From positions 1,168-65,167 of the forward strand of contig CAZHMU010000009.1 in NCBI GenBank assembly GCA_964533825.1: DNA of 64,000 nt, read 5' to 3'. The position numbers and the translations under genes are program-made. Numbering within the stretch: position 1 is the stretch's first letter; every line of letters begins with the position of its first letter. The notes under the pieces are model-generated. The model had not been told where the DNA came from and did no database searches. It worked only from the letters and a program-made list of their open reading frames with translations. Below, one piece after another: positions 26,305 to 40,313 of this stretch. This DNA comes from an uncultured Oscillospiraceae bacterium (GTDB taxonomy: Bacteria > Bacillota > Clostridia > Christensenellales > CAG-314).

Positions 26305-26405
26305 AGGATGTATGGCATAGAACTAATTCCGTTTGAAAGCGAATTTGGCTTGACCCACAAAAAGGGGTGAGTTGATATGGGGGCTGGATATCATGGTGGA
26401 TTTGG
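26304..26405 (+). repeat. Direct repeat copy B (orphan DUF4417 3' fragment + start of the cassette 2 ORF)
   Basis: It would encode ..RMYGIELIPFESEFGLTHKKG* against ..RMYGVELIPFESEFGLTHKKGVS* in the intact gene. The substitutions are mostly synonymous. Confidence 0.9.
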
Positions 26406-26799
26406 CAAGACATATGGGGAAAAAAGCAGGCTGAATAATATCAAAAAACCCATTACAAGAGTTGGCGATGTTAGGTATAGCTCAAGAAAGACTGAAGGGT
26501 ACTTGTTGAACATAAATCATCCATATGGTAGTTCTAAGGCAAAATTTATGAGAGATGTTTTGGGCTATTCTGTAGATGATTCAAAACTATTTCACAAAAA
26601 TGTTGTAAAATCGATAATTAACGAGGAACCATACAAGACTATTGAAACGATGTATGGACTAAAACACACATACCATACAGTATTAATTGGTAAAAATGGT
26701 GATAAAGTTACTGCAAATGTGGTAGTGGTAGTGCAGAAAGATAAAAAAAGGGTTACATATAAGATTGTAACTGTATATCCTAACAAAAAGGGGGATTAG
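26377..26799 (+). CDS. Variable cassette 2, DUF6883-like protein with the shared MGAGYHGGFG N-terminus
   Basis: 140 aa. Pattern TEGYLLNINHPYGSSKAKFMRDVLGY...YG.KH...L.G.NG.......VVVQKD....YKIVTVYP is remembered as DUF6883. Confidence 0.5.
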   Translation: MGAGYHGGFGKTYGEKSRLNNIKKPITRVGDVRYSSRKTEGYLLNINHPYGSSKAKFMRDVLGYSVDDSKLFHKNVVKSIINEEPYKTIETMYGLKHTYHTVLIGKNGDKVTANVVVVVQKDKKRVTYKIVTVYPNKKGD

Positions 26800-26801
26800 G
26801 T

Positions 26802-26993
26802 ATGAAAGAATTAGACGTAGTAATGTTAACAGAAAACTTTGAGAATATTCTTGCAGGAACAAAAGGCACTGTCGTTTGCGAATACGATAGAACCGCTTTT
26901 GAAGTTGAGTTCTTCGATAATGATGGGGATACTATTGATGTTGTTACAATTCCAGCTAATTTACTGGTTTTAGTTGAAGAATATAAAATGTAA
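26802..26993 (+). CDS. Variable cassette 2 partner, DUF4926-like small protein
   Basis: RBS AAAGGGGGATTAGGT before the ATG. 63 aa. Pattern D.V.L......L..G..GTVV.......FEVEF.D..G.T..V..IP...L matches my memory of DUF4926. Confidence 0.5.
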   Translation: MKELDVVMLTENFENILAGTKGTVVCEYDRTAFEVEFFDNDGDTIDVVTIPANLLVLVEEYKM

Positions 26994-27149: not shown

Positions 27150-27779
27150 CTATTTTGTACCAAACAATCTGTCGCCAGCATCGCCAAGACCGGGCAAAAT
27201 GTAGCTTGCTTCGTTGAGCTGTCTGTCTTGTGTTGCGCAGTAGATTTGTACGTCAGGGTGAGCTTCGTGCAAAGCTTTGATTCCCTCTGGTGCAGCAATG
27301 ATGTGCATGCATTTGATGTTCTTTACGCCTTTTGCCTTCAAAAGGTCAACTGCAGCAATGGCGCTACCGCCAGTTGCAAGCATTGGGTCAAGTACGATGC
27401 AAATCTTTTCTTCAATGTGAAGTGGCAACTTGCAGTAGTACTCTTGTGGTTGGCAAGTTTCTTCGTCACGGTACATACCAATGTGACCAACCTTTGCAGT
27501 GGGGAACAATGTGTGTACGCCGTTTACCATACCAAGACCAGCGCGCAAAATGGGGATGATTGCAACGGAGTTGTCGATGATAACTTGTTGTGGTGTTACT
27601 TCCAATGGTGTTTCCACCATGATTTCTTCAGTCGGGATATCTTTGAAAGCTTCGTATGTCAACAGTGTAGCAATTTCTTCAACAAGTTCTCTAAATTGCT
27701 TTGTGTTTGTGTTTTTGTCGCGAAGCAATGCAACTTTGTGTGACATGAGTGGATGGTTGATGATTGTAACGTTTTCCAT
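27150..27779 (-). CDS. upp: Uracil phosphoribosyltransferase
   Basis: RBS AAAGGAGAG before the internal ATG ([11 protein letters not shown]). PRPP motif [11 protein letters not shown]. 209 aa. The track start at 27920 was rejected. Confidence 0.95.
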
Positions 27780-28230: not shown

Positions 28231-28259
28231 ATGCTCTATAAGTTTGACCTATAGAGCAT
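28231..28259 (-). terminator. Hairpin downstream of the methyltransferase gene
   Basis: 10-bp stem ATGCTCTATA/TATAGAGCAT. The T-tract on the minus strand is weak. Confidence 0.45.
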
Positions 28260-28278
28260 TGTTAGTTATATAAGCATA

Positions 28279-28833
28279 TTAAATTTTCTTAAACACAAAC
28301 AGGTATTCGTGGGCGAGTAGCAAAAAGTTGTATTTTACGCTATTTGTTTTCCAAAAACCTGTTGCTTTGCAATTGTGTTGTTCTTTTATGATTATTTCTT
28401 TTGCTTTGAATCCTGCAAGTTCAAAAATGCGCATTGTTTCAAATGCAAGAGGTTGTACCATGCCATTTTTACGAGTATCGCCCATCAATACAGCACAATA
28501 CTTGCCCTTTTTTAAAACTCTATAGCTTTCCTCGGCAACCTTGCCAATTTCCATCAAAAATGGCTTGATGGATAGTTGTGACAAGTCGCCATCGATACCA
28601 TCGCTGTATTGAATAATATCTGCATAGGGTGGATGTGTGCAAATGAGGTCAACGCTTTCGTCAGGCAAGTCCAATTTGCGAGCATCGCCAAGACGGATGG
28701 AAATATCCACGTTTGAGTCAAACTCAAAATCGCATTTTCTTTGAGAAAGTTCTACAGCGTTAGGATTGATGTCAATGCCAATAAAGTTTCTGCCTGTTAG
28801 CTTTGCTTCAACTGCGGTTGTGCCACCGCCCAC
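28279..28833 (-). CDS. SAM-dependent DNA (N6-A/N4-C) methyltransferase, apparently 5'-truncated
   Basis: Motif I (ILDQF)VGGGTTAVEA..GRNFIGIDINP sits at the very N-terminus and motif IV is CTHPPY. In-frame TAA and TAG lie 6-7 codons upstream of the GTG. No RBS is visible. Related enzymes, as I recall them, carry about 40-60 residues before motif I. Confidence 0.6.
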   Translation of the reverse strand: MGGGTTAVEAKLTGRNFIGIDINPNAVELSQRKCDFEFDSNVDISIRLGDARKLDLPDESVDLICTHPPYADIIQYSDGIDGDLSQLSIKPFLMEIGKVAEESYRVLKKGKYCAVLMGDTRKNGMVQPLAFETMRIFELAGFKAKEIIIKEQHNCKATGFWKTNSVKYNFLLLAHEYLFVFKKI

Positions 28834-28863
28834 AAATTGGTCTAAAATAATCTATTATGATAT

Positions 28864-29193
28864 TTAACTAATCATCTGTTTTAGTTGTTTTAATATTAGA
28901 AAGATGTGATTGCTACATTGGTTTTCTTCGTAATGTTTTTCTTCTTCTGTCCACAAATATTCTACAATCTTTTTAATGTTATTCTTTAGAGACTCATCCA
29001 ATAGTTGCTCTCCTATAATGCAGTTTTCATTAAAGCCGTTTTTTGTTATCCATTGATTATTTTTTAATAGTGAATTAAGCGCATCACCCATATTATGCCC
29101 AGATGCTTGACCTAAAACCTGAAGGTTTTCTACTGGTTGATTAGTTGGACTTTCGGTATAGCCATCTGGTGTGTAAAATATATATCGTTTCAT
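28864..29193 (-). CDS. Hypothetical 109-aa protein in the DpnI-like operon
   Basis: TAATG overlap with the upstream endonuclease gene. No recognised motif. Confidence 0.45.
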   Translation of the reverse strand: MKRYIFYTPDGYTESPTNQPVENLQVLGQASGHNMGDALNSLLKNNQWITKNGFNENCIIGEQLLDESLKNNIKKIVEYLWTEEEKHYEENQCSNHIFLILKQLKQMIS

Positions 29194-29960
29194 TACTTTT
29201 TTCTATAAACCCCGTTTCCTAAGAATTCTATATATCCCTTATCTCGAAGTATTTGAAGCTGTTGGCGTATTTTTGCTTCAACATTTTTATTTTGCGGATG
29301 CAATGTTGATAAAAAATGAGCAAACTTGTATACATCTCCTAATGTGAATAAATCTTGTGGGATTTGATTGATGCAGTTTAGCACATCAATTAACCAACTT
29401 CTTTTATCAATGCTTTCAATATATAATGAATTGCTTCTATTTACGCATCGAACAACATCCAGCGCGCTATTTACTAAGCCGTCCTTTACTATGTCAATTC
29501 GACCTTGTAGCGGTATCTTGTCAATTAAAATATTACACCCTATCCAACCTGCACGGCGAGCAGACTGGGATAAAGGGGCACGAGCTTCAATAACCGATGG
29601 TGTAAAAAAGTGTCTGGGGATTATTATTAAATCCTTTACACGATATTCTATTTTTGAATAGCTCATAAACAAAAAATCAGGGTTTTGATTGCTTGTTATT
29701 CTTGAAATCATAGTTGAGTATGCGCCATCATTAATTTTGTTTCTTATTGGGCCAACTTTGCTTTTTAATTCAAATTGATTATTGCAAGATGGGCAATAAA
29801 AATCAGCTACTGGTCGATTGTTTTCAAAATGCAAAATATGGGTATTTCCACATCTTGGGCAGTACAAATTGTCTAACACCCATTGTTCAGTTAAAACACG
29901 TGCCTTTTGTGTATTGCTATGATATTGATTTGTAATATTAGTATTAAAATCCAAGTTCAT
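29193..29960 (-). CDS. DpnI-family methyl-directed type IIM restriction endonuclease
   Basis: 255 aa. Blocks QKARVLTEQWV..YCPRCG...HFENNRPVADFYCPSC..QFELKS, NDGAYSTM, ARRAGWIGCNI and C-terminal KIRQQLQILRDKGYIEF match my memory of S. pneumoniae DpnI end to end. Confidence 0.8.
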   Translation of the reverse strand: MNLDFNTNITNQYHSNTQKARVLTEQWVLDNLYCPRCGNTHILHFENNRPVADFYCPSCNNQFELKSKVGPIRNKINDGAYSTMISRITSNQNPDFLFMSYSKIEYRVKDLIIIPRHFFTPSVIEARAPLSQSARRAGWIGCNILIDKIPLQGRIDIVKDGLVNSALDVVRCVNRSNSLYIESIDKRSWLIDVLNCINQIPQDLFTLGDVYKFAHFLSTLHPQNKNVEAKIRQQLQILRDKGYIEFLGNGVYRKK

Positions 29961-29961
29961 A

Positions 29962-30159
29962 TTATTGCAGTTTGTCCTTATTTTCTTTTTTTCGTTTATC
30001 TATGGGCTTTTCGGCTGTGCTTGGAATAATCCACATATTGCCAACCATCATTGCACCTTTGATGCGTTCTTCTGAACACAGGATAGCAACTCTTCTTTGA
30101 GAAATATTCCATTTTTGAGCAGCTTCTTTTGCTGACATATAACTAAGCATAGCAATCAC
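29962..30159 (-). CDS. Small helix-turn-helix DNA-binding protein (possible controller)
   Basis: 65 aa. SAKEAAQKWNISQRRVAILCSEERIKGAMMVGNMWIIP is typical of the excisionase/MerR-like HTH_17 type. First gene of the operon. Confidence 0.65.
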   Translation of the reverse strand: MIAMLSYMSAKEAAQKWNISQRRVAILCSEERIKGAMMVGNMWIIPSTAEKPIDKRKKENKDKLQ

Positions 30160-30177
30160 CTCAATTATGATGACTAT

Positions 30178-30206
30178 ATTATATTCTAAATCGCGAATAA
30201 TAGCAA
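30178..30206 (-). promoter_or_regulatory. Promoter of the HTH-DpnI-like operon
   Basis: Minus strand: TTGCTA, 17-nt spacer, TATAAT. Confidence 0.6.
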
Positions 30207-30292: not shown

Positions 30293-31228
30293 TTATGCCT
30301 TGTTTGCAGAACCAAGTACGTTGATGATCTTGTGTTTTACCATTTCTTTCATCATTGCACGTGCATCGCCCAAGTATTGACGTGGGTCAAAGTGGTCTGG
30401 GTGTTCAGCAAAGTGCTTGCGGATTGCAGCCGTGAAAGCAACGCGAAGGTCACTGTCGATGTTGATTTTGCAAACAGCCATTGCTGCTGCCTTTTTGAGT
30501 TCGCTCTCGGGGATACCGATAGCGTCAGGCATATGTCCGCCAAATTGGTTAACGATTGCAACCTTGTCTTGTGGAACGGAGCTTGCGCCGTGCAGTACGA
30601 TTGGGAACTCTGGTAAACGCTTGCCGATTTCCTCCAAAATGTCCAAACGGAGCTTTGGATCTTGACCTGGCTTGAACTTGTATGCGCCGTGGCTTGTGCC
30701 GATAGCAATAGCAAGGCTGTCAACACCAGTTTTAGCAACAAACTCTTGTACTTCGTCTGGGTTTGTGAACATTGCATCATCTGCGGAAACGTTTACGTCA
30801 TCCTCGATACCAGCAAGTTTGCCAAGCTCTGCTTCTACAACGCAACCGTGAGCGTGAGCGTACTCAACAACTTGGCGAGTAATTGCGATGTTTTCTTCCC
30901 AAGGTTTACTTGATGCGTCAATCATTACGGATGTAAATCCGCCGTCGATACTTGCTTTACAAATTTCAAAGTCAGCACCGTGGTCAAGGTGAAGTGCAAT
31001 GGGCACTTCGCTTGTTTCTACTGCGGCTTTCACAAGATGGATGAGGTATGTTGGATTAGCATACTTTCTTGCACCTGCGGATACTTGCAAAATCACAGGG
31101 GATTTGCACTCGTTTGCAGCTTCGACAATAGCTTGGATCATCTCCATGTTGTTTACGTTAAAAGCACCAATGGCGTAACCGCCTTCGTAAGCCTTTTTGA
31201 ACATCTCTTTTGTTGTTACAAGTGGCAT
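30293..31228 (-). CDS. fba: Class II fructose-1,6-bisphosphate aldolase
   Basis: MPLVTTKEMFKKAYEGGYAIGAFNVNNME..., LHLDHG, GTSHGAYKF motifs. Confidence 0.95.
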   Translation of the reverse strand: MPLVTTKEMFKKAYEGGYAIGAFNVNNMEMIQAIVEAANECKSPVILQVSAGARKYANPTYLIHLVKAAVETSEVPIALHLDHGADFEICKASIDGGFTSVMIDASSKPWEENIAITRQVVEYAHAHGCVVEAELGKLAGIEDDVNVSADDAMFTNPDEVQEFVAKTGVDSLAIAIGTSHGAYKFKPGQDPKLRLDILEEIGKRLPEFPIVLHGASSVPQDKVAIVNQFGGHMPDAIGIPESELKKAAAMAVCKINIDSDLRVAFTAAIRKHFAEHPDHFDPRQYLGDARAMMKEMVKHKIINVLGSANKA

Positions 31229-34204: not shown

Positions 34205-35224
34205 ATGAAAAAACTTATTTCAATTTTACTTGTACTCTTTGTGCTTTGCACGGTTCTTGTTGCTTGCACACCAAACAACCCCGATCCACAATCCTACACA
34301 ATGGTTGCTCCAGATGGCGCACCAGCATTGGCAATAAGTGAGCTTATGGCGAAAAATATGCAATTTGACAACAACTTTACCTACAAGGTTGTTGGCGCAA
34401 ACGACATCAAAACCCACGTTGTGGGCAATGTAAACGCTCATGCCGACTTTGCGTTGTTGCCCATCAACCTTGCATCTTTGTTGCTTGGTGATGGCGACGA
34501 GTACAAAATGGTTGCCGTTGTAACGCACGGAAACCTGTACTTTTTGAGCAAAAACGACACACAAATCACTTTGGACAATGCAAGCACACAACTCAAGGGT
34601 AAGTCTATTGCCGTTGTTAATCTTGCTGCAGTGCCAGGGCTTACCACCAAGGCGCTTCTCACAAAGGTGGGACTTGCTTACACCGAAGACGAGTCTCAAA
34701 GAACGGATGACAATGTGTTCTTGAAGGGCATCAACGGCACAGAAATTGCTACATCCTTGAATGGCGAAAACGCTGTTGACTACGTTGTTGCTCCAGAGCC
34801 AGCCGTATCCACCATCACAGGCAAAGCGCCTGTAATCAAAAAGGTAGGCGCATTGCACGACGTTTATGGCCGTTATCCACAAGCAGTGCTTGTTGTAAAA
34901 AGTAGCATTATCGAAACAAACGTTCAACTTGTCAAAGACGTTGTCAACGCCATCAAGGGCGCAACCGACTACGTCAAGGCAAACACTCAAGATGCAGTTG
35001 ATGCCGTTGCAAGCCACCTTCCCGAAGGCACAACGCCATCCTTCAACGCAAACAACACAACTGCATCATCTGTTGACGGATGTGGCATCAACATCAAAAC
35101 TCTGGATGACACAACATTGCTCACACAAATTGAAACATACATCAACGATATCATCGCGGTAAATGCAACCAGCGCAAATGTATTGCCGGAAACATTTTTG
35201 GTGAACATCAACAAAGTTAAGTAA
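34205..35224 (+). CDS. ABC transporter substrate-binding lipoprotein (NMT1/THI5-like, NitT/TauT family)
   Basis: RBS AGAGGAG. Signal MKKLISILLVLFVLCTVLVAC. Operon with a NitT/TauT-type permease and ATPase. Confidence 0.65.
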   Translation: MKKLISILLVLFVLCTVLVACTPNNPDPQSYTMVAPDGAPALAISELMAKNMQFDNNFTYKVVGANDIKTHVVGNVNAHADFALLPINLASLLLGDGDEYKMVAVVTHGNLYFLSKNDTQITLDNASTQLKGKSIAVVNLAAVPGLTTKALLTKVGLAYTEDESQRTDDNVFLKGINGTEIATSLNGENAVDYVVAPEPAVSTITGKAPVIKKVGALHDVYGRYPQAVLVVKSSIIETNVQLVKDVVNAIKGATDYVKANTQDAVDAVASHLPEGTTPSFNANNTTASSVDGCGINIKTLDDTTLLTQIETYINDIIAVNATSANVLPETFLVNINKVK

Positions 35225-35312
35225 TTGGGCTTTTGATGAAACTATCCGTATTTTGATTGCTAAATTTAAGCCTCGCCCAGTGGCGATAGCGCAATTCATA
35301 CAGTCAGACGAA

Positions 35313-35355
35313 GGCTCCCACTTTGGGGGAGCTGGCAGCGATAGCTGACTGAGAG
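35313..35355 (+). repeat. Hairpin repeat, family B copy (GGCTCCCACTTTGGGGGAGCTG...CTGACTGAGAG)
   Basis: The first 25 nt are identical to 8433-8457 and both copies end in GACTGAGA. Confidence 0.8.
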
Positions 35356-35421
35356 GGTCTTTTTACATCCTTTTCAACTTAATATACAAATTGCAAACAA
35401 TCCCATTTTTACACTATAATA

Positions 35422-36183
35422 ATGAAAAACCTTTTCAAAAAAATATCTCCCATATTTTACCCAATCCTGTCGATAGCGGTGATGCTACTGGTGTGGCACC
35501 TGATTTTTGTGTGGGCTGGTAGCGAGTACGTATTCCCTTCCATTGGCGCAACACTGTCAAAAATGTGGCAGTATTTTACCGATGGTAACTTTTGGCTCGC
35601 CCTTTTATCCACGCTTGGTAGGGTAATGTTGTGTTTTGCGCTTTCCCTTGTGATGGCGCTTGCCGTTGGCGTTTTGTCCAAGTTTGTGCCAGCCGTTGGC
35701 AAGGTGCTTGCGCCCGTTATTGCCCTGTTCCGCTCGGCACCAACCGTCGCTGTGATGGTAATCTTGACCTTGCTTGTCAAGTCTGCCACCGCCCCCATAG
35801 TAGTGGGCTTGTTGGTGGTGTTTCCAATGCTGTACGCAAGTGTCACTTCCGCCATCGACCAAGTGGACAAAGGCCTTGTGGAGATGTGTAGCTTGTACAA
35901 CGTTCCCAAAACACACCAGCTAAAGTATGTTTATTTGCCAACTGTTGCCCCTTACCTTTTGGGCGAATTGCCAGCAACGCTATCCTTTACCGTCAAACTA
36001 ATTATATCTGCGGAAATTTTGTCCTACTCTTACCAAAGCATTGGCGGACTTATCCAATCGGCAAACGTGTATGTAGATATGGCATCACTATTTGCACTTA
36101 CATTGCTGTCGGTGCTGGTTGCCACATTGCTTGACGTCGCATTGCGACTTGTAGCAAAGGCTGTCAAAGGGGGTGCAAGATGA
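35422..36183 (+). CDS. ABC transporter permease (NitT/TauT family)
   Basis: 253-aa six-TM protein in operon context. Confidence 0.75.
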   Translation: MKNLFKKISPIFYPILSIAVMLLVWHLIFVWAGSEYVFPSIGATLSKMWQYFTDGNFWLALLSTLGRVMLCFALSLVMALAVGVLSKFVPAVGKVLAPVIALFRSAPTVAVMVILTLLVKSATAPIVVGLLVVFPMLYASVTSAIDQVDKGLVEMCSLYNVPKTHQLKYVYLPTVAPYLLGELPATLSFTVKLIISAEILSYSYQSIGGLIQSANVYVDMASLFALTLLSVLVATLLDVALRLVAKAVKGGAR

Positions 36184-36911
36184 CAAAACAAACAAATGCA
36201 AATATGCACACCTGTGCAAGTGACGTAAAAGTGCATAACTTGACACTAACCTATGGCACCAACGTCATCTACAACGACTTTTCTCACACTTTCGAAGGGA
36301 GCAAAGTACACGTAATTTTGGGCAAATCTGGCTGTGGCAAAACATCACTCTTGAACGCCATCGCAAGCCTTGTTCCATTTGATGGTCAAATTGAGTGTGG
36401 CAAACTGTCTTACGTTTTCCAACAACCACGACTTGCCCACACAACAGTTTTCAACAACGTAGAAATGGTCTTGCTTGCCGAAATTGCCGACAAACAAGAG
36501 CGCGTCCAAACTGTGCAAACTTACCTTGACTTTGCGGAAATAAGCCACCTTGCGGAAAAACAAGTTGCAAAACTCTCTGGCGGCGAGCAACAACGCGTCT
36601 CCCTTGCGCGAGCGTTTGCTTTTCCATCGCAAGTGCTGTTGATGGATGAGCCTTTCAAGTCGTTGGACCTTGGCATCCGCAAAACACTGTACAAAACTTT
36701 GGACAATCTTCTTTGCCAACACCAACGTACAACAATTTTGGTTACCCACGATGTGGACGAAGCACTTGCCCTTGCTGACACAATCTACGTTTTACAAGAC
36801 AAACCCTGCAATCTTGCAGAAGTGTGCCAAATTGACACTCCACGCAACTCGCGCGACTTGTACAGCCAAGATATGCTCACACTCCGCAAACAGCTTGAAA
36901 GCTTGTTATGA
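36180..36911 (+). CDS. ABC transporter ATP-binding protein (NitT/TauT family)
   Basis: Walker A GKSGCGKTS, signature LSGGEQQRVSLARAF, Walker B LLMDEPF. Confidence 0.85.
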   Translation: MTKQTNANMHTCASDVKVHNLTLTYGTNVIYNDFSHTFEGSKVHVILGKSGCGKTSLLNAIASLVPFDGQIECGKLSYVFQQPRLAHTTVFNNVEMVLLAEIADKQERVQTVQTYLDFAEISHLAEKQVAKLSGGEQQRVSLARAFAFPSQVLLMDEPFKSLDLGIRKTLYKTLDNLLCQHQRTTILVTHDVDEALALADTIYVLQDKPCNLAEVCQIDTPRNSRDLYSQDMLTLRKQLESLL

Positions 36912-37078
36912 CATAAGCTATTACGATTAAATAGTAAACTACACAAAAAGCATCCCCAATGCGCCAATTTGGGGATGCTTTTTGCCGTTTGCAACCAATT
37001 CTCGACCGATGGCGCAATCAATATTGCAAAAAAAATTACTTGTGCTATAATGCCATCAAGGAGGTAGGAAAAACAACT

Positions 37079-37519
37079 ATGAAATTCCAACTTACAATTT
37101 CTCCCACGCAGGAGGAATCGGTGCACGTCACCGTCAAGAAACACAATGACTTTTGTGCGGAAATAGAAAAACTGTGCCTTGCCTACAATGGTGCGGACAA
37201 CATCCCAGTGTACACTGATGACGAAGTGCAGTTGTTGTCCTTTGAAAATATCACTTGCTTGACTGTTGCCGATGGCAAGACATACGCAGTGGATTTGCAG
37301 GGCAAACGCCACCTTGTCAAAATGCGCCTGTACGAAATTGAGCAAATTTTGCCCACCTACTTTGTGCGCATCAACAAGTCTGCCATTGCAAACGAAACTC
37401 AAATTGCAAAGTTCAAAGCATCTTTTTCTGGTGCGGTGGATGTAATCTTCAAATGTGGCCACGTGGATTACGTTTCTCGCAGATGCTTTAGCGAAATCAA
37501 AAGGAGGTATCAATTATGA
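37079..37519 (+). CDS. LytTR-domain DNA-binding protein
   Basis: RBS AAGGAGGTAGG. C-terminal LytTR pattern FVRINKSAIAN...VSRRCFSEIKRR. Confidence 0.75.
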   Translation: MKFQLTISPTQEESVHVTVKKHNDFCAEIEKLCLAYNGADNIPVYTDDEVQLLSFENITCLTVADGKTYAVDLQGKRHLVKMRLYEIEQILPTYFVRINKSAIANETQIAKFKASFSGAVDVIFKCGHVDYVSRRCFSEIKRRYQL

Positions 37520-37941
37520 AACAATTTTGGAAAAACTTTTTTATGCGTGGATTGGTTGCCGCTTGGGGCGGTCCAATCATCTTGGCTATTGTCTACTTTA
37601 TCTTGGGGCTTACGGGTGTTGTAACGACGCTGGACGTGTATCAAGTAGTGCTTGGTGTGGTGTCCTCTGCGGTGATGGCATTTATCGCAGGGGGCATAAC
37701 AGCAGTGTACCAAGTGGAAAAATTGCCACTTATGCACGCTAGTGTGCTACACGGAGTGGTGCTGTACATCGACTACCTTGCCATCTATCTTTTGAACGGC
37801 TGGCTGGCTGACGGCATTGTGCCACTGTTGGTGTTTACCGCAATCTTTGTTGTGGGCTACGCCATTGTTTGGTTGATTGTCTCATCCATCATCAAACACC
37901 ATGCCAACAAGCTCAACCAAAAGTTTAGCGCACAAAACTAA
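37516..37941 (+). CDS. DUF3021-family membrane protein
   Basis: ATGA overlap with the LytTR gene. 141 aa with four TM helices. The LytTR+DUF3021 pairing is common. Confidence 0.6.
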   Translation: MKQFWKNFFMRGLVAAWGGPIILAIVYFILGLTGVVTTLDVYQVVLGVVSSAVMAFIAGGITAVYQVEKLPLMHASVLHGVVLYIDYLAIYLLNGWLADGIVPLLVFTAIFVVGYAIVWLIVSSIIKHHANKLNQKFSAQN

Positions 37942-38007
37942 AAACAAGTAGTGCCCAAACAAAAAAAGCGACCACGTGGTCGCTTTTTCTATTATTAATT
38001 CATGTTG

Positions 38008-38832
38008 TTATTCTTCAACTGATAGTTCAATGGATGGCTCAACTGATGGCTCCAACTTTTTGCTTTTGTTTTTGTTTATCCTTTTGACAATGGCGTGGTA
38101 TACAGCGTAGAACACCACAATGTACACAAGGAAGGTGCCAATTACCAACATCGGGTACAATACAGGGTTACCATTTACCAAGTTGTAGTAAAGTACGTAT
38201 GGTGTGCCGTCATCGCGTTTTAAGAACATATAGTTGTAGTTACCTGTCGCGTTGATAACTAACGCAATCGCGCAAACAGCAAGCAAAATACCCATTACCC
38301 AAAACATTGTCTTTTTCTTCATGGATTGCATGCCGGAAATAACAATATACAATGCAGCAAAGCCCGCTGCGGTGTGCGTGATGTTTGAGCAAATGTTGTA
38401 GTAGGAAAGTACTGGGTAGGTATTGTAGAAGTGCACAGCTGCAAATGTGCCAAATGTACAACTCAAAAAGCCGAAAACAAACACGTAGTCCAATGCTGCT
38501 TCCTTAAGTTTTCCTTTACCAAGTGCTGCAAGGGGCACTGTAATAAACTGCATACTGCACAAAAAGAAAGGCAACTCCCACAACCAGGACATACCATCAC
38601 TGGATGCGCCAATACCAACTGCAATGCGGAAAGTTTCCACAGTGTGCATCAGTAGTGCTGTCCAAATGAGCACTTTGTTCTTTTCTTGTAGGCTTTTGTT
38701 GCGATTCTTTTTACCCAAAACAATTGCCAAAACTATGGCTATTGCCAAAGATATGCTAACGTGCAAAAGGTGTTGCCAAGAGTAAGCCCCCTCTGGAGTT
38801 CCAAACTCTGGCTTACCGAAAAATTCTCCCAT
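38008..38832 (-). CDS. Integral membrane protein (YwaF/TIGR02206-like)
   Basis: RBS GAGGGAGGAAAT before the internal ATG (MGEFFGKPEF). About 7 TM helices. Confidence 0.45.
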   Translation of the reverse strand: MGEFFGKPEFGTPEGAYSWQHLLHVSISLAIAIVLAIVLGKKNRNKSLQEKNKVLIWTALLMHTVETFRIAVGIGASSDGMSWLWELPFFLCSMQFITVPLAALGKGKLKEAALDYVFVFGFLSCTFGTFAAVHFYNTYPVLSYYNICSNITHTAAGFAALYIVISGMQSMKKKTMFWVMGILLAVCAIALVINATGNYNYMFLKRDDGTPYVLYYNLVNGNPVLYPMLVIGTFLVYIVVFYAVYHAIVKRINKNKSKKLEPSVEPSIELSVEE

Positions 38833-39080
38833 ATTGAGATTTCCTCCCTCGTTACTTTGTGTGGAGTCTCTCACTTCCAAACAAACCACACATCGGCACA
38901 ATTTTACCAATGCTATTGATTCACATTCTATACCGTTGGGCTTAATTTGTCAATTATTTTGCATCGCTATACCTTTTTGATGAAAGACAAAGCAATCAAA
39001 GGCTCGCAAAAGTGCGCAAAAAGAAAAAAGAGCAATCAATTTGATTGCCCTTTTGCATAAAACTACAAATATTTTTTCAA

Positions 39081-40313
39081 TTAGATAACCCATTCGCCAT
39101 CGCGGAAGAGTGGCACAACTGTGCCGTCAAAGCCGATACCATCAATATTGATGTCCTTTGTGCCTACCATAAAGTCAACGTGCTTGATACTGCTGTTCAT
39201 ACCACGTTCAGCAAGTTGTTCATCGGTAAGACTGTTGCCGTTTTTGACTGTTGTTGGGTAGCTTTGACCAAATGCCAAGTGGCAACTTGCATTTTCGTCA
39301 AACAATGTGTTGAAGAACAAAATCCCGCTTTCCGCAATGGGGGAGTTTTTGCCAATCAACGCAATTTCGCCCAAGGACAAAACGCCTTCGTCAGCTGTCA
39401 ACAAGCCCTTCAATGCATCGTAGCCAACTTCTGCGCTGTAGTCAACAACGCGACCGTCCTTGAAAGTGATGCTGAAGTTATCAATGATGTTGCCGTTGTT
39501 TACAAGTGGAAGTGCGCTAACAACTGTACCATTGATCTTTTTGTTGTGTGGTGCAGTAAAGATTTCTTCTGTGGGCATATTTGCTGTAAAAGGAATACCA
39601 TCTTGGCCTTCTTCACGAGCGGCAATCCACAAGTGGTCAATAGCAAGACCAACGTGAAGGTCTGTGCCGTGTGCGTTGTACATATGGATTGTTTCAAAGT
39701 TGTGGCTTGTCAAAAATGCCGCACGACGAGTGAGCACGTCAATGTGCTTGAACCACGCCTCTGTTGGGTCCTCTTGATCAAGGCGCATGATGTGTCCAAT
39801 AGCATCCCACATCTTGTCAACAGCTTCGTCCACTGGCAACTCTGGGAAAACTTGCTTTGCCCAAGCTGGTGTTGGGATGGAAACAAGTGTCCAACGTAGA
39901 AGGTTGGACATTGTAGCCTTGCGGAAGTTGATCATTGCTTTGCCACTTGCAAGAGCAGACTCTTTGAGTTTTACTGGGTCGCATCCCTTGTAGATGTTGG
40001 GGTCGCCTGCCTTGATGGAAATGAGGCACACGTCGTTGTCGATGAAGTATTGAGATTGGTCAATTGCCCATTGTGGCACTTCGCACAAACTTTCCAAAGA
40101 TTGGTTGAGCATACCCATGCGAGCAACAATTTCGTCACTCCATTGCATGATTACTTTTTTTGCGCCAAATTCGTACGCCTTTGCAACGATGAGATGTGCA
40201 AACTCTTGGCAGGCAACGTCACAACGAACAACCACGATTTGTTCCTTTTGCATATTTGCACCCACGCGTACAGTAAGTTCGGCAAATTGTTCCATTTGTT
40301 TTTGATTCAACAT
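39081..40313 (-). CDS. Aminopeptidase, M29 family (AmpS/PepS-like)
   Basis: RBS AAAGGAG before the internal ATG (MLNQKQMEQFAELTVRVGANMQ). M29-like motifs through to the C-terminus. Confidence 0.8.
   Translation of the reverse strand: MLNQKQMEQFAELTVRVGANMQKEQIVVVRCDVACQEFAHLIVAKAYEFGAKKVIMQWSDEIVARMGMLNQSLESLCEVPQWAIDQSQYFIDNDVCLISIKAGDPNIYKGCDPVKLKESALASGKAMINFRKATMSNLLRWTLVSIPTPAWAKQVFPELPVDEAVDKMWDAIGHIMRLDQEDPTEAWFKHIDVLTRRAAFLTSHNFETIHMYNAHGTDLHVGLAIDHLWIAAREEGQDGIPFTANMPTEEIFTAPHNKKINGTVVSALPLVNNGNIIDNFSITFKDGRVVDYSAEVGYDALKGLLTADEGVLSLGEIALIGKNSPIAESGILFFNTLFDENASCHLAFGQSYPTTVKNGNSLTDEQLAERGMNSSIKHVDFMVGTKDINIDGIGFDGTVVPLFRDGEWVI

Follow-up and report, generated by a model that had tools for sequence, protein, structure and literature searches.

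The stretch of DNA analysed in this work (referred to below as the window) comprises 64,000 nt from an uncultured Oscillospiraceae bacterium (CAZHMU010000009.1, positions 1,168-65,167), and all coordinates given are those of the whole stretch. The element of interest is a minus-strand operon at positions 28231-30206, for which a preliminary description listed four open reading frames (ORFs), viz. a short one for a helix-turn-helix (HTH) protein followed by those for a 255-aa enzyme resembling the restriction endonuclease DpnI, a 109-aa protein and a 184-aa DNA methylase. All four of these ORFs are present, and the consensus promoter that was placed ahead of them is readily recognized (Table 1). 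The HTH ORF has 65 aa if it is read from a GTG (29962-30159), but its real start is the ATG at 30150, from which it encodes 62 aa. One nucleotide separates the stop codon of this ORF from the ATG of the DpnI gene, whose own stop codon overlaps the start of the 109-aa ORF (TAATG). The content of guanine plus cytosine is 32.4% in the segment carrying the DpnI and 109-aa genes, 39-40% in the two methylase-derived parts (stubs) on either side of it, and 45-47% in the neighbouring fba, upp and gapA genes. The same allele is found in four independent assemblies, three of them at 100% identity and one (L184) at 99.1%, and due to this an assembly artefact is excluded.

The intact operon of sister species and the replaced segment

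The origin of this arrangement can be understood by comparing it with the corresponding region in sister species, for which intact alleles, with the nearest M2 methylases of full length, were available from metagenome contigs in ENA (L001, L037 and L038) and from our genome set (G024). The flanking regions of these alleles show 78-90% nucleotide identity to the window and the order of the genes in them is gapA, fba, M1 (355 aa), a gene for a 179-aa PD-(D/E)XK protein, M2 (246 aa) and upp, where M1 and M2 are methylases. In five independent intact alleles, the homology to the window stops exactly at positions 29993 and 28847, and the segment replaced extends from M1 codon 54 through M2 codon 57. 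Residues 1-53 of the HTH ORF correspond to the N-terminal HTH domain of M1 (53/53 aa identical to M1 of L001), while the sequence of its residues 54-62 (KKENKDKLQ) is new and stems from the replacing segment. Because the HTH ORF represents the N-terminal 53 codons of M1, methylase stubs are present at both ends of the replacing segment, and this ORF should not be regarded as a gene of the cassette but as the beginning of M1 with a short new tail. The proposal that a DpnI cassette has displaced part of a resident restriction-modification (R-M) system, on the other hand, is upheld by the sister alleles, which are intact between the same fba and upp genes. The DpnI set and the DpnII-type set are thus alternatives at one gapA-fba-[operon]-upp site (L001, L037 and G024 versus the window), as seen between sister species.

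Of the two methylases in the intact operon, M1 is an HTH-fused D12 enzyme (PF02086, 4.4e-69; TIGR00571 dam, 303 bits) which contains the motifs NGLYRVN...FNVP...Y and DPPY, and whose best match in the PDB is DpnM (2DPM, 1.7e-56), followed by E. coli Dam. The match of M2 to PF01555 (N6_N4) consists of two pieces in permuted order, motif I preceding motif IV (HPPY), and an alignment with 2ZIE, a beta-class methylase, shows the same permutation. In G007, G014, G026, G032 and G059, the gene located between M1 and M2, sometimes accompanied by an extra gene, codes for a DpnII-family restriction endonuclease (PF04556; 5.5e-108 in G007 and 4.1e-89 in G059), and 13 of the 17 further Clostridia operons that were fetched consist, by tblastn, of HTH-M1 (M1 alone in one case), a DpnII-family nuclease and M2. 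The M2 gene, which marks this operon, was detected in 53 of the 400 Clostridia genomes sampled, in most of them at full length. As a DpnII-family nuclease is found in the middle of the operon in many relatives, the resident operon is interpreted as a GATC system, and both the homologies of M1 and M2 and the depletion of GATC in the host (see below) suggest that these methylases are specific for GATC.

The middle part of the operon shows further variation. In L001 (7460-7999), and also in G024, G005, G009 and G054, the middle gene encodes the 179-aa PD-(D/E)XK protein, which does not belong to the DpnII family; it shows a weak match to PF20472 (PDDEXK_11, 1.9e-5), none in NCBIfam, and is presumably a non-homologous GATC nuclease that has been swapped into the same methylase frame. 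Extra genes between M1 and the DpnII-family nuclease were seen in three cases, viz. one for an Mrr_cat protein (L027:9455-10309; PF04471, 4.2e-21), one for a DUF4357 protein (L028:10455-11339) and one for a 205-aa protein without a match (L032:2680-3297), and due to their presence in intact operons the operon middle is seen as a general swap site. There are also two other species of the genus in which the locus contains no DpnI and only decayed fragments of the operon. In G013 (L031:8486-9048), M1 residues 1-99 abut M2 residues 139-226, with stop codons inside, and in G003 (L024:8397-8662) only pieces of M2 are left; based on these fragments, the DpnII-type operon has also been lost by plain deletion.

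Information was also obtained from the host genome, which is 93% complete. No match to D12 methylases (PF02086) was found in it, and the M2 stub is its sole match to PF01555; the survey covered the D12 and N6_N4 classes of methylases, with type I, type III and type IIG enzymes falling outside its scope. Genome-wide, 1657 GATC sites are observed as against 5051 expected, and the resulting ratio of observed to expected (O/E) of 0.33 is second only to that of CTAG, in keeping with long exposure of the lineage to restriction at GATC. The O/E values of other depleted palindromes are 0.11 (CTAG), 0.39 (CATG), 0.46 (GGCC) and 0.53 (CCGG). Within the window, no GATC site occurs between 25517 and 30326. 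This should not be interpreted as indicating a GATC-free cassette, as a gap of such size is the expected longest of 62 gaps and a longer one is present at 34286-39534.

Considering these results together, it is very probable that the locus is a DpnII-type GATC R-M operon whose centre has been replaced by a segment bearing DpnI and a gene of the family PF27350. The original order would have been promoter/operator, HTH-fused DpnM-like M1, restriction nuclease, M2 and terminator, and the AT-rich DpnI/PF27350 segment of 1145 bp, by taking the place of M1 codon 54 to M2 codon 57, would have eliminated the nuclease and at the same time inactivated the two methylases. If the replacement occurred in this manner, then the cell would no longer methylate GATC, the old operon promoter would now transcribe the HTH stub, DpnI and the 109-aa ORF, and DpnI would be expected to cut foreign DNA in which both strands carry G(m6A)TC, for example phages or plasmids that come from one of the numerous related strains still possessing a DpnII-type operon. 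Autoregulation of the operon probably continues through binding of the 62-aa HTH stub to the conserved operator at the promoter, and the 184-aa methylase ORF would be an untranslated or non-functional remnant.

The following points weigh against this interpretation. The direction and mechanism of the replacement, viz. homologous recombination via the methylase-gene arms, are what we infer rather than observe, and the GATC specificity of M1 and M2, as well as the dependence of DpnI on G(m6A)TC, rest on homology. An intact allele from the same species was not found; the DpnI allele is the one carried by L041, L042 and L184, and the alternative alleles are known between sister species, not within one species. 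Further, a methylase gene could still lie on a contig missing from the genome. Lastly, the omega value (ratio of non-synonymous to synonymous substitution rates, dN/dS) of the M2 stub relative to L001 is 0.044, the same as for pairs of intact genes, and it shows no relaxation of selection. Such a value would be expected if the stub is still under selection, or if it was truncated, or last converted by an intact allele, only recently; the second reading, with a recent truncation or conversion, is the one preferred here. An omega of 0.044 fits a recent truncation, and dN/dS is uninformative as a test of decay for this stub.

Table 1. Features of the DpnI-bearing operon and its flanks in the window. 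M1 and M2, first and second methylase genes of the intact operon; SD, Shine-Dalgarno sequence.
Feature	Coordinates	Strand	Remarks
fba, class II fructose-bisphosphate aldolase, upstream flank	30293..31228	-	same flank in intact-operon allele
Sigma-70-type promoter TTGCTA-17-TATAAT	30206..30178	-	matches 10/12 consensus positions
HTH ORF, 62 aa, SD GAGGTG and ATG at 30150	29962..30150	-	M1 N-terminus plus new tail
Left junction, last base (codon 53) with homology to intact M1	29993		blastn and alignments
Replacing segment, 1145 bp (DpnI, 109-aa gene and short spacers only)	28848..29992	-	
DpnI-family type IIM restriction endonuclease, 255 aa	29193..29960	-	PF06044 and PF17726
109-aa partner gene, PF27350 (AF_1447)	28864..29193	-	coupled translationally to DpnI
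Right junction, first base (within codon 58) with homology to intact M2	28847		
M2 3' stub, codons 58-246 of 246	28279..28847	-	184-aa ORF from GTG is 28279-28833
Intrinsic terminator of old operon, 13-bp stem then ATTTTGTTAT	28231..28259	-	hairpin and T-run
upp, uracil phosphoribosyltransferase, downstream flank	27150..27776	-	same flank in intact-operon allele

Recurrence and history of the replacement

The recurrence of this type of locus was examined in GTDB genomes, where stubs of M1 and/or M2 are present at 38 of the top 80 DpnI loci. At every DpnI locus flanked by M1 or M2 that was inspected, at least one methylase is truncated, with M1 always cut before its C-terminal conserved segment, and in the sampled Clostridia genomes truncated copies of M2 coincide with DpnI. 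In a common form of these loci M1 is cut directly after the sequence G-A-K-[IV]-[IV]-V, at about residue 305-311. Within the genus, DpnI is found in only 2 of 37 species. In the second of these (G021), M1 is kept to residue 305, DpnI shows 62% identity, M2 starts from residue 30 and contains a frameshift, and the partner of DpnI is a DpnD/PcfM gene (PF14207, 2.3e-8). The position of DpnD among DpnI loci also varies, being after DpnI in some and before it in others. A different arrangement is seen in the loci of Bacteroidota/Flavobacterium/Saprospiraceae type (L102, L114, L120, L125, L126, L127 and L129), where DpnI comes directly after an HTH-less D12 gene; this gene is nearly full length, extending to residue 340-348 of 355, and it reads into a conserved tail (...GRAFRSNLFVRSSQKGFPLQSLTQLAA, then a stop codon) that looks like a conserved non-coding element.

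Monophyly of the DpnI-linked stubs is rejected by the approximately unbiased test both for M2 (difference in log-likelihood 290, p 1e-6) and for M1 (difference 378, p 6e-4), and in the M2 tree the stub from the window is sister to the intact gene of L001 (support 98). As the stubs are interleaved phylogenetically with intact genes, the replacement is recurrent and/or has been spread by recombination. In individual alleles, the arms and the core differ in their histories. L184 differs from the window at 10 positions in 105 bp of the HTH arm and at 3 positions in the 768 bp of DpnI. This cluster of substitutions (window 30001-30106, 8 of 10 synonymous) looks like a recombination tract, although its variants match none of the sampled intact alleles from which a source was sought. 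In L185, which has the nearest DpnI (78% identity), M1 extends to about residue 308 and the left junction thus differs from that of the window; the M2 arm of L185 is 97% identical to that of L001, whereas its M1 arm is only 49% identical. The left junction of the window, viz. M1 codon 53 with the KKEN tail, is common to loci whose DpnI proteins are only 60-71% identical. In a quick tree, the loci with the HTH-only junction formed a single DpnI clade (support 95), but this clade was not upheld in a careful tree which included L185. As this clade fails and the nearest DpnI has another left junction, we claim mosaicism for these loci and not a single origin. Taken together, the sequences point to repeated replacement and/or to dissemination of DpnI alleles through homologous recombination in the arms derived from the methylase genes, and the recurrence of stubs, interleaved with intact genes, suggests that one main way in which DpnI genes spread is by replacing DpnII-type operons.

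However, some of these observations can also be explained if the DpnI allele is an old, vertically inherited trans-species polymorphism, the stubs of which have been refreshed by gene conversion from intact alleles. Such a history would account for the codon-53 cut and KKEN junction being shared by loci with rather divergent DpnI, and also for the arms and core differing in their histories, as in the mosaic L184 and in L185. It does not agree with the different left junction of L185, which has the closest DpnI, nor was any conspecific genome with an intact allele found, and overall this explanation is regarded as somewhat unlikely. It should be recognized, however, that an old polymorphism differs from the replacement described above in timing only, and the two are not mutually exclusive.

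A tentative extension of the replacement interpretation, for which our confidence is low, is that DpnI and its partner, together with the methylase stubs, constitute a self-targeting, operon-replacing cassette. If this is the case, then the M1/HTH and M2 stubs would serve as homology arms that direct the module to operons of the DpnII type across many lineages, and one double crossover would turn a cell that methylates and restricts at GATC into one that restricts methylated GATC, with both methylases destroyed. The retained promoter-operator-HTH unit would throttle DpnI while the old methyl marks are diluted. Were this true, DpnI/DpnII switching would be a widespread, recombination-driven polymorphism of gut anaerobes and members of other phyla, and no peculiarity of pneumococci.

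The methylase remnants and the acquired genes

The promoter of the operon lies in a block, cTTGCtaTTaTTCGaGATTTAGAATATAAT, that is conserved in 23 operons, intact and DpnI-bearing alike. A candidate operator within this block is the imperfect inverted repeat TATTC-N8-GAATA (30182-30199), which overlaps with both the spacer and the -10 element. In L050, L053/L054, L060 and L065 (67-83% identical), an HTH-only ORF with its cut likewise at codon 53 has remained intact. The substitutions in this ORF are mainly synonymous, with 8 synonymous and 2 non-synonymous changes between the window and L184 and an omega of 0.025 for L053 versus L050, which indicates purifying selection on it as an ORF of its own. 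In view of these characteristics, there is a reasonable probability that the HTH ORF still acts as an autorepressor of the operon, which now expresses DpnI. If instead the HTH ORF is a mere functionless scar of M1, then DpnI will be expressed constitutively from the old promoter. Such a scar could be surmised from the facts that the ORF is the 5' end of a truncated gene, that its Pfam match to HTH_17 scores 22.5 bits, under the gathering cut-off of 27, and that the HTH-only form is not universal, since class-B alleles keep a long piece of M1. However, the intactness of the ORF cut at the same codon in the above loci, the predominance of synonymous changes in it, and the conservation of the promoter block with its inverted repeat all speak against this possibility, which we consider doubtful.

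The 255-aa protein was described earlier as DpnI-like and this is borne out by its matches to PF06044 (DpnI; 9.1e-76, residues 1-178 versus profile positions 1-179 of 183) and to PF17726 (DpnI_C; 6.4e-32, residues 185-254 versus the entire profile, 1-70 of 70), as well as by an end-to-end alignment with the structure of R.DpnI (4ESJ; residues 1-254 of 255, E 1.6e-80). Its N-terminal part forms a Zn/PD-(D/E)XK domain and the C-terminal part a winged helix. Two CxxC pairs are conserved relative to 4ESJ (CPRC and CPSC opposite CPNC and CNHC; Zn-binding Cys4), and the catalytic segment PVADF...FELKSK, containing the D...E-x-K motif, is identical in the two proteins. The catalytic residues of this PD-(D/E)XK site in R.DpnI we take to be D53/E64/K66. 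The omega value of about 0.09 relative to related proteins indicates purifying selection, and the DpnI of the window looks intact and constrained. That its cleavage depends on G(m6A)TC is predicted from homology.

As the activity of this enzyme is predicted from sequence, and as some DpnI-family genes in other phyla adjoin near-full-length D12 methylase genes, one might suppose that it is inactive or has some other specificity, in which case there never was a conflict over GATC and the truncation of the methylases represents unrelated decay. This explanation is very unlikely in the light of the full-length alignment with R.DpnI, in which the Zn cysteines, the D/E/K motif and the winged helix are all kept, of the purifying selection, of the truncation of at least one methylase at every M1/M2-flanked DpnI locus inspected, and of the coincidence of truncated M2 copies with DpnI in the sampled Clostridia genomes.

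The 109-aa gene following DpnI was earlier suggested to be possibly DpnD-like. This identification is rejected, as Pfam and NCBIfam searches with the protein both gave no match to PF14207 (DpnD) or any other family, a comparison by hhalign with an alignment of 22 DpnD-like neighbours of DpnI gave a probability of only 0.7%, and the protein is assigned by precomputed annotation to PF27350 (AF_1447), a small family which is also found beside restriction genes. The 109-aa gene is nonetheless a positional analogue of DpnD. Its homologues follow DpnI in several phyla, and in other loci they come after a Sau3AI-like nuclease that has a MutH domain and is accompanied by a C5 methylase (L043), or after an NmeDI-like nuclease (L046). 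The protein consists of two modules, viz. an N-terminal one of about 65 aa (beta-rich with a helix), which elsewhere follows DpnI as a gene of its own, and a helical hairpin of about 40 aa at the C-terminus. The latter module is likewise found, behind a DpnD-like N-terminus, in 101-aa proteins of L120 (1926-2231) and L127 (4767-5072), and based on these fusions the two families of DpnI partners share a module. An AlphaFold2 model of the 109-aa protein has a mean confidence score (pLDDT) of 92.9; Foldseek searches with it gave nothing under E 0.37 in the PDB, and in BFVD only a marginal match (8.9e-3) to an unnamed phage protein.

Regarding the 184-aa methylase ORF, the suggestion that it is decapitated agrees with all that is observed. 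Its frame opens right after TAA..TAG, at I-I-L-D-Q-F-V-G-G-G-T-T, and of the start signals looked for, neither an ATG nor a purine-rich SD sequence is present, the only start candidates being a GTG (the V of FVGGG) or an ATT. The frame is open for 190 codons and it retains motif I (FVGGGTT) and motif IV (HPPY). The best homologues of this ORF are almost all of 245-246 aa, and in relation to them the window lacks the first 57 codons (62 if the GTG is used), in good agreement with the 40-60 residues before motif I whose absence was previously estimated. Among the 120 homologues listed, all have 244-259 aa except for the window's own cluster and two short outliers. The conserved N-terminus of M2, MAKQIPLQPENFELETNTVWSFP.RGKWATHDAKYRGNWSPYIPRN.ILRYSNEGDTV, has no counterpart in the window. 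As the PF01555 match of intact M2 begins at residue 13 (first piece 13-94), whereas the window starts at residue 58, or 63 from the GTG, the 57 missing residues are part of the catalytic domain, and the 184-aa ORF does not contain a complete N6_N4 domain inclusive of the segment before motif I. Use of the GTG would in addition cost strand beta-1 of motif I, and this codon is GTT in L184, the 99.1%-identical strain from another run. M2 stubs at other DpnI loci begin anywhere from residue 11 to residue 218, usually without a start codon, and often contain frameshifts, stop codons or a mutated motif I. In the M2 tree, the stubs have longer end branches than the intact genes (median 0.14 versus 0.054, Mann-Whitney p 0.004), a difference which depends on sampling density.

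On the evidence of these sequence features, the 184-aa ORF is judged to be a dead remnant of M2, either untranslated or non-functional, and any residual function of it is most improbable. The paradox raised in the preliminary description, viz. a methyl-dependent endonuclease beside a methylase, which would disappear if the methylase is dead or is not specific for GATC, is resolved by the first of these possibilities and not by the second. From the open frame with motifs I and IV and from the low omega, one could argue that the ORF encodes an active methyltransferase which is short by nature, is specific for a sequence other than GATC or for some other substrate, and functions as a partner of DpnI, but this is highly improbable given that nearly all homologues listed are of full length with a conserved N-terminus, that the part which is absent falls within the PF01555 match, that stop codons lie immediately upstream and neither ATG nor SD is present, that the sole canonical start, which would itself remove strand beta-1 of motif I, is lost in L184, and that the stubs at other DpnI loci are cut at many points and often broken.

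Relation to known systems and consequences

In the complementary logic of DpnI and DpnII, one population methylates and protects GATC, while the other attacks methylated GATC. The best known example is that of the complementary DpnI/DpnII cassettes of S. pneumoniae (Lacks et al. 1986, cited in PMC3812788; PMC3573125, PMC4471560). The likeness to this exchange, which had been pointed out from the outset, is well founded, as alternative gene sets occupy a single fba-upp site. In both cases, a DpnI-type nuclease with a small partner is the alternative at one site to a two-methylase DpnII-type system and the two sets are mutually exclusive in a genome; the DpnI of the window also aligns over its full length with R.DpnI, and M1 is DpnM-like. 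However, there are several differences. The replacement here lies within the operon and has left stubs of both methylase genes, and the N-terminal HTH domain of M1 survives as a separate ORF. The gene order is M1-R-M2 (R being the nuclease gene), in contrast to dpnM-dpnA-dpnB in pneumococcus, and M2, a permuted N6_N4 methylase with motif I before motif IV, is not an orthologue of DpnA. Further, the partner gene in the window belongs to PF27350, whereas in pneumococcus DpnD is found next to dpnC, and the G021 allele has a DpnD-like gene. Lastly, polymorphism within a species is a hallmark of pneumococcus, whereas the alleles described here are seen between sister species.

A second known case is the dam-replacing gene drg (NmeBII) of Neisseria (PMC516771, PMC4269198), from which the Pfam name 'Dam-replacing family' (PF06044) originates. 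There also, a homologue of DpnI is found at the locus of a Dam-type methylase, dam+ and drg+ are mutually exclusive, and the inserted gene is lower in GC than the genome. However, in Neisseria a solitary dam gene was replaced, whereas here a whole three-gene R-M operon has been gutted and its promoter and HTH module reused. R.DpnI itself is a type IIM enzyme in which a PD-(D/E)XK domain with a Zn site is joined to a winged helix (PDB 4ESJ/4KYW; PMC3424567, PMC4117772). The enzyme of the window has the same two-domain architecture, matched at 1.6e-80 over 254/255 residues, but about half of the residues differ, and its activity and methyl dependence are predicted ones.

The window locus is thus a new case of the swap that is known from pneumococcus and Neisseria, and it extends the DpnI/DpnII logic of complementary restriction to uncultured gut Clostridia. 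The locus is also a precise molecular scar, in which both methylases are truncated and the operon promoter and HTH are reused. If the described interpretation is correct, then G(m6A)TC is predicted to be absent from this genome and present in that of the sister species. In practical terms, this organism is expected to restrict DNA that comes from Dam+ E. coli, and genetic work with it would require dam- donors. As a minor observation, two small adjacent plus-strand ORFs of 140 aa and 63 aa are located downstream of upp (26377-26993), which we take to resemble a toxin-antitoxin-like pair of the DUF6883/DUF4926 type.

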